From a virus (lineage: Duplodnaviria; Caudoviricetes), in the IMG/VR virus record IMGVR_UViG_2904541872_000002, positions 1,693-65,692 of that record: a stretch of 64,000 bases of DNA; one strand, given 5' to 3'. Position 1 is the stretch's first letter; every line of letters begins with the position of its first letter. A program made the position numbers and the translations under genes. Positions 27,167 through 42,896 of the stretch are shown one piece after another. Under the pieces are notes generated by a model, which worked only from the letters and a program-made list of their open reading frames with translations, was not told the origin of the DNA and made no database searches.

Positions 27167-28392
27167 GGCTGGGTTTCCTTTCGGACGATCTCGGCGTCCA
27201 TGTAGCTGCGCGCGACCGCTACCGAGGCCTCGGCCCCGGCGCGCGTGGAGATGACGTGCTGCATGCCGTCGAAGGCGCGGTACAGCGAGACGCCGCGCAC
27301 CGCCGGGCCGAAAGCGATCGCGGCCTCCTGCAGGTTCTGCACGCCCCCGGCCATGTCCGCCATCACGAGGCCGCGCGGCGACTGCCAGTAGGCGGCCTTC
27401 GCGGCCGGCGAGCGCACGCTCGAGCAGGCCAGCGCGCCGTAGGGGAGCAGTTCGGACAGGCGCGAGGCGTTGAAGTCCGGCAGCCAGTAGGTCTTGTCGG
27501 CGCAGATGTAGATGCCGCTGTCGCACGGCTCCACCACCGTGATGTTGTCCGGCAGCGGGATGTAGCCGGCGGCCGGCTCGTAGAGTCCGTAGCGGTAGGG
27601 CTGCGAGAAGTAGAGCATCCGGCCCGCCGCGACGACCATGCGGCCGTTGAAGTGCCGCACGATGCTGCCCGCGGGCATCACCGCAGTCTCGATCGTCGCG
27701 CAGCGCCGCCCGGTCTCCTGGGGCGCCAGCACGCTGAAGCGCCCGTCCGTCGAGGTCTGGGCCAGGCCGAGCAGCTCGCCGTTCGGCCCCGACAGGTAGA
27801 GGTTCACGATCAAGCCGTCGAGCAGCACGTCGCTGAGCGCCAGGCCACCACCTTCGGGCACCTCCACCTGCTGCACGACGGTGGCCGGCGACTCGCCGTC
27901 TTCACCCTGCACGGTGAAGGTGTAGAGGTAGCGGCCGGCCGGCAGCGCACCGGCGGTCAGCGACAGCACTGGCGCGCTCGACAGCGGCGGCGTGGCGACC
28001 GCCCGGTCCTCGCGCTCGAGCACGCGGCGGATCTCGGCGCCGTTGGTCCAGTAGACCGCGCCGTCGGCGCCCGGCGAGTACGACACGTCGGCCCGCGGCA
28101 TGCCCGCACGTACCGCCACCTGGTCCAGCCCTGCCCCGTTCGGCTCGAGCTGGGTGAGCACGCCATCGACGACGGCGAAGCCGAACTTGCCGTCGTTGTC
28201 CCATACGCTGTGCCAAGCGCCGGCCAGCGCGCGCGTCGCGCCGACCCGGCGCTTCACGTAGCCCTGCGCGTCGATGTCGACGTTGTCGGCGCCGTAGAGG
28301 AAGGTCGCGCCCTCGCCGCCGTCGGCCAGCCGCGTTGGCTCGCGGCGGTTGTTGATGCCGCGGGCCAGGGAGGTGAAGTTGACGTCGCGCAT
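27163..28392 (-). CDS. Tail nozzle/stabilisation protein (beta-propeller type)
   Basis: 409 aa, GINNR...ADNVDID..G...RRVG start, position after adaptor. Confidence 0.7.
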   Translation of the reverse strand: MRDVNFTSLARGINNRREPTRLADGGEGATFLYGADNVDIDAQGYVKRRVGATRALAGAWHSVWDNDGKFGFAVVDGVLTQLEPNGAGLDQVAVRAGMPRADVSYSPGADGAVYWTNGAEIRRVLEREDRAVATPPLSSAPVLSLTAGALPAGRYLYTFTVQGEDGESPATVVQQVEVPEGGGLALSDVLLDGLIVNLYLSGPNGELLGLAQTSTDGRFSVLAPQETGRRCATIETAVMPAGSIVRHFNGRMVVAAGRMLYFSQPYRYGLYEPAAGYIPLPDNITVVEPCDSGIYICADKTYWLPDFNASRLSELLPYGALACSSVRSPAAKAAYWQSPRGLVMADMAGGVQNLQEAAIAFGPAVRGVSLYRAFDGMQHVISTRAGAEASVAVARSYMDAEIVRKETQP

Positions 28393-32855: not shown

Positions 32856-32897
32856 AGTGTCGAAAGAGCAAAGGCAAAGACGAAACCCTACAGGGGG
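32856..32897 (-). promoter_or_regulatory. Late promoter element copy 5 (scaffold-capsid operon)
   Basis: CCCCCTGTAGGG-TTTCGT-N18-GACACT. Confidence 0.7.
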
Positions 32898-32905
32898 CAG
32901 GAACG

Positions 32906-32930
32906 AAAAAGCCGCCTCGAGGGCGGCTTT
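32906..32930. terminator. Bidirectional intrinsic terminator
   Basis: AAAAA-GCCGCC-TCGAG-GGCGGC-TTT. Confidence 0.8.
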
Positions 32931-34053: not shown

Positions 34054-34917
34054 TTAGGCAACCACCACCCAGTCCTCCGCCAGCATGTCGGTTTGCGAGG
34101 CGAGCCAGCCCATGAGGATCTCGCCGTTGGCGGTCTTCATCGTGATGGACGGCAGCACCATGGCTGTGCCGTTCGGCTGCTGCTCGGCCCACTTCCGGTT
34201 CGCCGACGCCCAAAAGCCCGCGGCCGGCACCTCGCGCGAGCCGTCGCAGCTCAGGGCGAGCCACATGTCCTTGCCGTTCCAGCCGAGGCGCGCGACGCGC
34301 TCGCCATGCTTCAGGGCCCGCAGCGCCGCGCCGAAGTCCAGGACCGAGCGCTGCCCGCGCGCAGCAAACACCGCGTCGACCGCTTCTTCGGCCTTGCCCG
34401 GACCTTCGTCCTGGTGATCGTCGCGCACCGGAATGCTGACGACCTTAGGCGCTGCGGCCGACCTGGTCCCGATCAGCGCATCGATCGCTTCGCGCACCTG
34501 CGTGCCGACACGCGCGCCACCGTGCCCCAACTCCGCGACTCGAGCCGCCAGCGAATGCGAGGCCGACAGTTCGAGGTCCTGGCGGTGCGTGCGTGCAATG
34601 GGCGCCGCGGTTGCATCCTGCCGCGCGGCCTGGCCCTTCTGGAACGGCATCCAGGTGCAGAACCACCCGAAGTCGACACGAGCGGGATCGGGTTCCGGCA
34701 AGAGGTCAACGCTGGTGCGACCGTGCGGTGCACCGTTGGCATCGAACACGGTCAGATTGACCAGCACGTCGCTCCACACATGCGTGACGATCGCGGCGTA
34801 GGGCTGATCGGCGCCGGCGGCATGGCGCGCGAAGCCAGCCTCGGCGCCGTTCGCACAGGGATAGAACCAGAGCACGCGGCCGACGGTTGGGGTGATCTGG
34901 GGTTGAGGGGTGTTCAT
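34054..34917 (-). CDS. Fusion: uncharacterised phage N-domain plus C-terminal DUF2829 (Tad2-like) domain
   Basis: Start ATG 34917 after AGGAG; N-domain PTVGRVLWFYP...WMPFQ; C-domain LDFGAALRALKHGERVARLGWNGKDMW...GWLASQTDMLAEDW. Confidence 0.85.
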   Translation of the reverse strand: MNTPQPQITPTVGRVLWFYPCANGAEAGFARHAAGADQPYAAIVTHVWSDVLVNLTVFDANGAPHGRTSVDLLPEPDPARVDFGWFCTWMPFQKGQAARQDATAAPIARTHRQDLELSASHSLAARVAELGHGGARVGTQVREAIDALIGTRSAAAPKVVSIPVRDDHQDEGPGKAEEAVDAVFAARGQRSVLDFGAALRALKHGERVARLGWNGKDMWLALSCDGSREVPAAGFWASANRKWAEQQPNGTAMVLPSITMKTANGEILMGWLASQTDMLAEDWVVVA

Positions 34918-34933
34918 AGGGCTCCTGAAATGG

Positions 34934-35032
34934 AAAAGCCCTGTGGTCTGGCATCCCCGGTAGCGGCCTTCCTCCTCACGGAGGTGGGATGCCAGAGAAC
35001 AGGGCTCTGGGTTGGTTGTCTTGGCCGCTACC
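34934..35032 (-). promoter_or_regulatory. Structured 5' leader: terminator-like hairpin with 10-bp 5'-to-loop pairing
   Basis: Stem 34937-34957 / 34986-35006, T tract, and GGTAGCGGCC (35023-35032) complementary to loop segment 34959-34968. Confidence 0.65.
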
Positions 35033-35046
35033 CGTTGACGAACGCC

Positions 35047-35088
35047 AATGTCGATGCAGGGACGCGACAGCACCATCCCTACAAGGGG
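35047..35088 (-). promoter_or_regulatory. Late promoter element copy 6 (Tad2-fusion leader)
   Basis: CCCCTTGTAGGG-ATGGTG-N18-GACATT. Confidence 0.55.
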
Positions 35089-35107
35089 TCGGTGGAATAA
35101 TTGGTTG

Positions 35108-35782
35108 ATGCCATACGACGATCCGATTTCTACTCCATGGGCCGGCAACCTCGAAGAGGTCAGTCGCCGAATGAATGCGTTCTTCGGAAGCGCCGAAGGA
35201 TTTGAAAGCTATCTAAACGGTCGGTTGCAGGCATTTACGGCAGTCTGGCAGCGAGACTCTCGGGAGGTGGGTGAGGTCCTTCATGCTCACCTCGTAGTCG
35301 AGCACTTTTTGGATGAATATTTGCGGAAAACTCATCCGACTGTTGATTTCGATGTCGTTCGGCCGAAGTACGATGGGAAGCTCAAGTTCGTGCCTGCGTC
35401 GAATCAGCTCCTGATGGAAGCCATGCCGAGCTTCAGGGCGCTAGGCACGATCCGCAATGGGTTGGCTCATCAGATCAATCGTGGGATCGAGAAGGCGGAT
35501 ATTCAGCCGATGCTCAAGTTCGAAAAGTACCGGACTTTTCGCAGTAGCCCGAGTACGCAGGGCCCAATGGATTTCAACTCAGCAAGCCCACACGAGATAT
35601 ACCTCGACTTTGCGAAATGGATTGCGAGCACGCTTCAAACGATGGCTGACCCAGATCATGAAAAAATGAAATTGGTCTTCGACCTTTCTCGCAACATCGA
35701 CGGCACGCCAGCCCCGGCCGTCTCCAATGACGGCGTACCAGGATCGCCGAAGGTAAAACGTCCGATCTTCGGAAGTTTCTGA
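35108..35782 (+). CDS. HEPN-domain protein (MtlR-like HEPN, RxxxxH), antisense moron
   Basis: HLVVEHFL helix and IRNGLAH motif at 35453-35470; low GC; start ATG 35108 (alternative 35048). Confidence 0.75.
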   Translation: MPYDDPISTPWAGNLEEVSRRMNAFFGSAEGFESYLNGRLQAFTAVWQRDSREVGEVLHAHLVVEHFLDEYLRKTHPTVDFDVVRPKYDGKLKFVPASNQLLMEAMPSFRALGTIRNGLAHQINRGIEKADIQPMLKFEKYRTFRSSPSTQGPMDFNSASPHEIYLDFAKWIASTLQTMADPDHEKMKLVFDLSRNIDGTPAPAVSNDGVPGSPKVKRPIFGSF

Positions 35783-40993: not shown

Positions 40994-41194
40994 ATGCTCG
41001 TCTCTGATCCCGAATTGAAATCGCGCCTGACGGCTCAAATGGCCTGGGAGGCTGCATGCGAGCGGGTTCGCAAGACGCTGCACCCACCTCTTGGCTATCC
41101 CAAGCCAACCCCGGAGGAACTCGAGGCCGCCTTCACGAATGCCGCAGAACGGCTGCATACCTTGCGCGTCATCTGCACCACGCCAGAGGAATGA
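40994..41194 (+). CDS. Small hypothetical protein (66 aa)
   Basis: ATG after GGGG, helical amphipathic sequence, stop abuts terminator A tract. Confidence 0.55.
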   Translation: MLVSDPELKSRLTAQMAWEAACERVRKTLHPPLGYPKPTPEELEAAFTNAAERLHTLRVICTTPEE

Positions 41195-41222
41195 AAAAAC
41201 CCGCCAGGGTGGTCCTGGCGGG
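41194..41222 (-). terminator. Intrinsic terminator of candidate ncRNA
   Basis: 9-bp stem 41200-41208 / 41214-41222, T6 on the minus strand. Confidence 0.85.
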
Positions 41223-41428
41223 CGAACGTGCGACCGAGGCCGCTCGAGGAGACAACTGGCCGGCTCGATGCCGGGAGCGGTCCATCCGACTACGCGCGCT
41301 GCGCGCTGGACCGTGCGGTTTCGTCCCACCCTGCAACCCCTGGGACGAGCAGGAGGAAAAATCCGGAGTGGCTTACCCCCCACTCCAGCACCAGGGCTGG
41401 CGCCGTGTTCGGGGTCCGGTTGCCCGTG
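41194..41428 (-). ncRNA. Candidate structured ncRNA (about 235 nt)
   Basis: Upstream late promoter copy, at least four hairpins, no convincing ORF, ends in terminator CCCGCCAGG-ACCAC-CCTGGCGGG-TTTTTT. Confidence 0.6.
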
Positions 41429-41434
41429 GCCTGA

Positions 41435-41476
41435 ATCTTCCGGCTGCCGGCACATGCGGCGAATCCCTACAGGGGG
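41435..41476 (-). promoter_or_regulatory. Late promoter element copy 8 (ncRNA)
   Basis: CCCCCTGTAGGG-ATTCGC-N18-GAAGAT. Confidence 0.65.
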
Positions 41477-42821: not shown

Positions 42822-42896
42822 TGGTTGCGGTGGCCCGATGAACGGGCGACCTGTGGGTTATGAGCCCTCTGCGCTACCTGGCTGCGCTACACCGCG
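42822..42896 (-). tRNA. Degenerate initiator-type tRNA-Met(CAT), possibly pseudo-tRNA
   Basis: C1:A72 mismatch, three G-C pairs in anticodon stem, CTCATAA loop, encoded CCA; T-loop only 5 nt (TTCAT), A28:A42 mismatch. Confidence 0.75.

Follow-up and report, generated by a model that had tools for sequence, protein, structure and literature searches.

The stretch of DNA analysed here (the window, 64,000 nt) covers nearly the whole of a 65.7-kb IMG/VR provirus record. On its minus strand lie, in listing order, a small terminase (40804-39866), a large terminase, a P22-like portal (38333-35784; PF16510, E = 2e-94), a 287-aa Tad2 fusion (34917-34054, with its ATG at 34917-34915), and then two genes of 338 and 370 aa and the gene for the major head protein. 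The fusion protein joins a conserved N-terminal barrel domain to a C-terminal Tad2-like domain, which spans residues 194-286 and makes up the C-terminal 93 residues of the protein (PF11195, E = 5e-22). The N-terminal domain is conserved in relatives that bear other C-termini, and a fold search points to an SH3/Tudor/KOW-like barrel, the best PDB match of which (E = 0.14) is not significant. This conserved SH3/Tudor-like part covers the first ~100 residues, and it is its C-terminal partners that differ among relatives. A gene for such a domain directly after the portal recalls the head-associated proteins with polymorphic C-termini of the MuF/gp7 type; that the Tad2 fusion might be an anti-defence effector packaged in the virion is only an idea, drawn by analogy.

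The portal gene is separated from the segment under study by an ORF on the plus strand (35048-35782), which has a low GC3 and whose sole match is a PHROG family of unknown function. Because of this ORF, the leader described below is a minus-strand feature of a divergent intergenic region. Homologues of the ORF (~40% identity) occupy the same position in the relatives L081, L082, L094, L096 and L107. An extended -10-like sequence, TGnAATAAT (35093-35101), lies 7 nt ahead of an in-frame ATG at 35108 on the plus strand, so the maximal ORF may overstate the length of this gene, which may also be leaderless.

In front of the Tad2-fusion gene lies a conserved, folded leader RNA of ~105 nt that is made of three helices, one of them terminator-like, all encoded on the minus strand. 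From 5' to 3', it comprises the 5' strand of helix P1 (35023-35032), followed by an A/C-rich linker, L1 (35007-35022), and by the 5' arm of helix P2 (34986-35006). The P2 loop holds a 5-bp mini-hairpin, P3 (34971-34984), which is capped by a GNRA loop (GUGA) and contains AGGAGG, and then the 3' strand of P1 (34959-34968), which a single nucleotide separates from the P2 3' arm (34937-34957). A U-rich tail comes next (34926-34936), with a U-run (34934-34937) that overlaps the last P2 pair, and the Shine-Dalgarno (SD) sequence AGGAG (34922-34926), as read from the sequence, precedes the ATG; GGAG is kept in most relatives. In the window, P2 counts 19 pairs, with 8 bp at its base (35006-34999/34944-34937) and 11 bp above (34996-34986/34957-34947), separated by a 2x2 internal loop; in relatives, it counts 21 bp. 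Its loop (34985-34958) is 28 nt long. The linker L1 varies in sequence and in length (13-23 nt) among relatives and shows no conserved pairing. The preliminary description of this locus had reported a 19-bp hairpin with a 28-nt loop, a TTTT and an SD sequence, and all of these are indeed present on the minus strand. It had also reported that the 5' end of the leader is complementary to the loop; this holds over exactly 10 nt (35032-35023 with 34968-34959), and the helix concerned, P1, covaries.

The leader folds with a minimum free energy of -62.2 kcal/mol (z = -4.8), and none of 200 shuffles is as stable. When the 129-nt region was dinucleotide-shuffled 2000 times, 12 of the shuffled sequences had an inverted repeat that was perfect over at least 10 nt, and none had two. 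The order of the strands, P1a-P2a-P1b-P2b, makes P1 and P2 interleaved helices, each with covariation support, as in a pseudoknot. On geometric grounds, P1, P2 and P3 could coexist: junctions of 1-3 nt can close, and L1, at the lengths given above, can span a 21-bp P2.

Exact-pattern scans found the element in 13 viral contigs of IMG/VR, in 5 contigs from metagenomes and in a single species genome, that of Variovorax sp. Root411. These matches collapse to 12 distinct sequences, which belong to related Variovorax-type prophages with P22-like portals. With the strict pattern, one species genome was matched among 185,579, and Root411 holds one real copy. The provirus also has a single copy, and a dispersed host repeat of the REP/MITE-like palindrome kind was rejected on the grounds of these single copies. 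All the prophage copies lie downstream of a homologous portal gene (66-94% amino acid identity), in a post-portal region that goes from 0.4 to 3.9 kb among related phages, many of which do not carry the element. The RNA part is ~90% identical while the downstream proteins share 37-55% identity and the promoter spacer is unalignable, which points to purifying selection rather than to a recent transfer.

Every copy has a promoter ahead and a variable cargo behind. In L077, L080 and L083, the cargo is the same N-terminal domain with other C-termini; in the L076 group, an extra gene comes first; in L084/L087, the element precedes unrelated genes and there is no Tad2-fusion protein; and in L078/L100, a truncated remnant is left. 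The gene for the N-terminal domain is also found without the element (L012, L013, L130). The preliminary description had tied the leader to an anti-defence gene, and this association is not specific, as other cargo can follow the element, and an anti-repressor operon lies behind one of the divergent copies. Two divergent copies, L137 (36.8 bits) and L139 (62 bits), were found with a covariance model (R1) in whole genomes of the same family and genus. The first lies near Cro/YdaS-like regulators. The second, which adjoins a divergent ParA-like gene, is followed by two ORFs (79 and 136 aa) and by a Bro-N/Rha anti-repressor. A model termed R2 gave nothing new in an order-level sample of 151 genomes. 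L143, which scores 32 bits with R2 and has a 6-nt complement between its 5' segment and its loop, may be a more distant variant: at 1004-1327 and 1448-1558 it shows a perfect 20-bp stem, a GCAA mini-hairpin and then an SD sequence and an ATG, together with a second loop hairpin whose own loop is complementary to an upstream hexamer. It comes from a Comamonadaceae-type genome and adjoins a divergent Arc-like repressor gene. The contexts of L137, L139 and L143 are settings of the secondary-immunity type. Other candidates (L138, L140, L141 and L144-L150) were discarded as plain hairpins or false positives.

Each of the three helices is backed by covariation, one of the checks proposed with the preliminary description, and the paired segments are conserved. 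In an alignment of 12 sequences (A4), double-sided changes affect 14 pairs, and 95% of the cells are paired, a result that none of 500 shuffles reaches and that no slid register comes close to. P1 was left out of the model used for aligning, so its 97.5% pairing in A4 is no fitting artefact; the counts for P2 (9 of 21 pairs change on both sides, L139 included) and for P3 (3 of 5 pairs covary) lean on that model. P1 shows double changes in two columns of A4, and compensatory changes are found in L077 (one A-U to U-A swap), in L139 (two pairs, next to many in P2) and in L137, where further changes consist of a C-G to A-U replacement and of one base pair deleted on both sides. The loop of P3 is a GNRA tetraloop in every member (GUGA, GCAA, GGAA, GCGA or GAGA). 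The upper part of P2 in L137 has a wholly different sequence, and both L137 and L139 keep P1, a P2 with a central 1x1 mismatch, a GCAA-capped P3 and a U-rich tail by means of different sequences. Among the 11 prophage sequences, P2 is nearly invariant and its central mismatch is conserved. G-U wobbles occur for the minus strand only (L076, L084, L090, L139), which favors an RNA made from the minus strand.

Judged from these sequence comparisons, the leader is a real, conserved and uncatalogued structured RNA. Indeed, no Rfam family matches it, C4 antisense RNA, riboswitches and ribozymes included: a search of positions 34700-35300 against Rfam 15 with E values up to 10 gave two chance-level matches only, to a miRNA model and to a snoRNA model; the whole window at the gathering threshold gave 4 tRNAs only; and L137 and L139 gave nothing relevant. 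The leader is a candidate new RNA family for Rfam.

A copy of a quasi-palindromic promoter motif with a CCCTnTAGGG core lies upstream of the leader (35075-35087, minus strand) and is one of a repeated set. The window contains 8 copies, all on the minus strand, for 1.09 expected, and none of 100 shuffles reaches 8. The motif stands at a fixed distance upstream of the leader element in all 12 prophage copies, and the spacer between them is not conserved. A predicted -10-like hexamer, GACATT (35047-35052; GACGAT in most relatives), forms a conserved block ~20 nt past the motif, with the xAxxxT pattern at the same position as in the other seven promoter copies. We place the predicted transcription start near 35039 (+/-2 nt), given that this is 7 nt past the -10-like hexamer and that sequence conservation among relatives begins there. 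The leader length of 123 nt given in the preliminary description is plausible if transcription starts near 35039-35040, as predicted. Four of the remaining promoter copies (5927, 16890, 17750 and 40840, minus strand) have an ATG 34-35 nt past the motif, that is ~6-8 nt past the -10-like hexamer and at the expected start position, with no SD sequence, so that those late mRNAs are probably leaderless. Literature searches returned no description of the promoters or of the leader of this phage group.

Another promoter copy, at 41475, precedes a structured non-coding region (41194-41476, minus strand) that is conserved in L095, L097, L098, L107, L108, L111 and L112. This region shows apparent compensatory changes, and the U-run that follows its 41386-41365 hairpin is not conserved. 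It has no Rfam match, the best one being the Betaproteobacteria toxic sRNA at 41193-41254 with 23 bits for a gathering score of 50.

The terminator character of P2 is best appreciated from what follows it. The 12 nt after P2 contain 54% U in 13 members, for a window background of 15.6%. The P2 stem (-43 kcal/mol), together with the UUUU and the additional Us behind it, has the G+C-rich hairpin and the U tract that define an intrinsic terminator. As the SD sequence lies 11 nt past the U-run, the downstream gene can be transcribed only through the hairpin. However, the d'Aubenton-Carafa-type score, which is d = +7.3 in the window, falls below zero in 5 of 11 relatives and above it in the other 6, and the weak tails of the former speak against termination. 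The 28-nt structured loop is also atypical of a terminator, and a simple consensus terminator scan made no call. The phage has a canonical intrinsic terminator elsewhere (32900-32930), with which P2 shares a G+C-rich stem followed by a U-rich tail, but from which it differs by its 21-bp stem, its 28-nt structured loop, its location in a 5' leader and its weaker tail (d = 7.3 against 20.7). That terminator (minus strand, 6-bp G+C stem, U5) sits 4 nt upstream of the promoter copy at 32884-32896, closes the unit made of the Tad2-fusion and 338-aa genes, and provides an internal standard of strength.

How P1 could act on P2 is constrained by their layout. The strands of P1 (35032-35023 and 34968-34959) share no nucleotides with those of P2, so a classical, mutually exclusive antiterminator is absent, and any exclusion between the two helices can only be topological. 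When nested structures are folded on a growing transcript, the P1-closed form is the minimum-energy one from 81 to ~95 nt, and P2 wins from ~100 nt. P1 is thus predicted to form first, as its closed form is optimal at the shorter lengths. No leader ORF is conserved, the only frame being a GUG-started 21-codon ORF that begins in the P3 loop of the window, and the GCAA, GCGA, GAGA or GGAA loops of relatives offer no start.

The preliminary description had proposed an attenuator or a pseudoknot switch, and this is a reasonable reading of a structured leader that follows a promoter, of a terminator-like hairpin that precedes the SD sequence, and of a P1 helix that covaries. We favor a promoter-proximal attenuator in which P2 and its U tail would be a weak-to-moderate intrinsic terminator and P1 would modulate it, and we give this reading a probability of about one half. 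The phage's own late-type promoter copy (35087-35047) would start a transcript near 35039, and its first ~105 nt would fold into a three-helix RNA, with P2, with P3 in the P2 loop, and with P1 (9-10 bp) pairing the 5' end with the rest of that loop. P2 and the U tail would then act as a promoter-proximal intrinsic terminator of modest strength, so that only a fraction of the transcripts would reach the SD sequence and the Tad2-fusion cassette, which lacks the space for a separate promoter. P1, made before the P2 3' arm, would form first and would either lock a compact pseudoknot or delay the closure of the base of P2; in doing so, it would set the frequency of termination or, if the control is conditional as the preliminary description had it, regulate it. 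Several observations count against this attenuator: the tail, weak by the classical score in 5 of the 11 relatives, the atypical structured loop, the lack of nucleotides shared by P1 and P2, and the near-invariance of P2 within the prophage set, which suggests a sequence-specific recognition by some partner.

One of the closest known layouts is that of the lambda PR'-tR' leader (6S RNA), which is read through by Q and whose read-through is needed for the late genes. As in lambda, a phage late promoter is followed by an intrinsic terminator within about 100-200 nt. In contrast, no Q-like protein or qut-type site was found here, the hairpin carries P1 and P3, and the other seven copies of the promoter of this phage have no such leader, four of them being apparently leaderless. 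A search for regulators between 41.5 and 50 kb gave no antiterminator, only weak AbiEi-, NinB- and LuxR-type matches. Prophage accessory cassettes, such as those with Tad2 homologues and anti-repressors, need a tight control of their dosage and timing, which is understood mainly in a few model phages. The leader is directly testable, being a compact and well-delimited RNA (~105 nt) whose three helices covary and whose promoter and output gene are both defined; if P1 tunes termination, a pseudoknot with the loop of a terminator would join the known ways to build an attenuator.

The main additional possibility is that the terminated product plays a trans-acting role of the immunity-RNA kind. The ~105-nt terminated leader would be a stable small RNA, whose loop segment would pair in trans, either with the 5' segment of leaders still being transcribed or with some other target, in an RNA-mediated feedback similar to that of the P4 CI, P1 c4 or N15 immA RNAs. 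We hold this to be unlikely, although it is compatible with the attenuator. P4 CI, P1/P7 c4 and N15 immA are leader-encoded immunity RNAs, in which processing of the leader yields a stable small RNA whose targets are complementary sites within the operon itself. The likeness lies in a structured leader RNA of a phage accessory operon, in a loop complementary to another segment of the same leader, and in a premature termination or downstream block, here predicted. The complementarity between the upstream segment and the loop is conserved and covarying, the place of L139 before two small ORFs and an anti-repressor is like c4-icd-ant, with the ParA-like gene adjoining, and the possible distant variant L143 lies beside an Arc-like repressor gene. 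However, the leader has no sequence or structure match to the Rfam C4-type models, and in the absence of any matching Rfam model the resemblance to the P1, P4 and N15 leader RNAs is functional at most. It also differs from them in having a single complementary pair, with the complement inside the terminator's own loop, in showing no processing signals in its sequence, and in having as cargo, in the window, a late-expressed Tad2 fusion rather than an anti-repressor. A second copy of the target, near the SD sequence or elsewhere in the window, is not found above chance: trans targets within the window amount to 9-11-nt chance words, and the exact P1 10-mer has only one other occurrence there, at 27927. 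If the terminated RNA did act in trans, the RNA immunity logic of P4 and P1 would be extended to betaproteobacterial prophages. For the N15 immA leader RNA, one can refer to Ravin, Svarchevsky and Deho (1999), as cited in PMC4488713.

A bolder version, which we regard as rather improbable, would combine the two ideas in a new, self-contained class of phage riboregulators. In such a class, the pseudoknotted terminator would release a product whose loop titrates the 5' segment of nascent leaders, giving an RNA-only feedback that gates anti-defence and anti-repressor cassettes. It would be a functional analogue of the P4 and P1 immunity RNAs without a match to the Rfam C4 model.

A role in RNA processing or stability, without any regulation of termination, is in our view quite doubtful. 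P2 would be an RNase III-type site, or the fold would shield an RNA end, 5' for the cargo mRNA or 3' for the upstream portal transcript. A 21-bp P2 with a conserved central mismatch, a 5' end sequestered in P1, and a tail that is weak in about half of the relatives all fit with this. However, it leaves unexplained the conserved U-richness right after the stem, and it accounts no better than attenuation for the GNRA hairpin and for the covariation of P1. E. coli RNase III has little sequence specificity, and cleavage by an RNase III would leave the near-invariant sequence of P2 without explanation.

A plain terminator or insulator that ends the terminase-portal transcript, with the promoter upstream by accident and P1 without a role, is very improbable. 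The portal gene does have no other terminator before this point, and the phage does put a canonical terminator (32900-32930) immediately before another promoter copy. But here, unlike at 32896, the promoter precedes the hairpin; P1 and P3 covary, which a simple terminator does not need; and the whole architecture is retained in the different contexts of L137 and L139.

The weakest reading is that of a ligand-sensing riboswitch, with a pseudoknot aptamer and the terminator as expression platform, along the lines of preQ1-I, fluoride and ZTP, which are pseudoknot-containing transcriptional riboswitches. The coupling of a pseudoknot to a terminator in a 5' leader is shared with these, and the involvement of the terminator loop, the tight 1-3 nt junctions and a GNRA loop suited to a tertiary contact would fit, but it is extremely improbable since conservation is no higher at the junction nucleotides than in the stems, no conserved core resembling a ligand pocket and no Rfam match are found, the pseudoknot strand lies in the terminator loop and does not compete with the terminator stem, the downstream genes are related neither to each other nor to any metabolism, and only a few lineages carry the element.

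Two further proposals about the leader were set aside. The preliminary description had paired the loop with a candidate non-coding RNA at 41351-41358. The complementarity exists, between AGGAGGAA at 34976-34969 and positions 41358-41351 of the minus strand, but the pairing itself was rejected, as neither side is conserved and there is no covariation. Such an 8-mer match is unremarkable (4 copies in the window for 0.8 expected). The octamer AGGAGGAA is already paired, as the 3' strand of P3, and is of GGGG type in most relatives, and the distant UUCCUCCU and the U-run that precedes it are not conserved, being replaced in relatives by C-rich variants that do not track P3. The other proposal was a mimicry of tRNA-Met: the longest word that the leader has in common with the tRNA-Met of the phage is 7 nt, a length reached by 212 of 500 shuffles. 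Only an L080-type leader and an L098-type tRNA share 13 nt, and there the tRNA varies and the leader does not follow. The tRNA-Met itself (42822-42896, minus strand) looks like an initiator, as it has three G-C pairs in its anticodon stem together with a C1-A72 mismatch. Upstream of it lies a variant of the promoter motif, and the relatives L098, L100, L101 and L104 have a tRNA at the same place.
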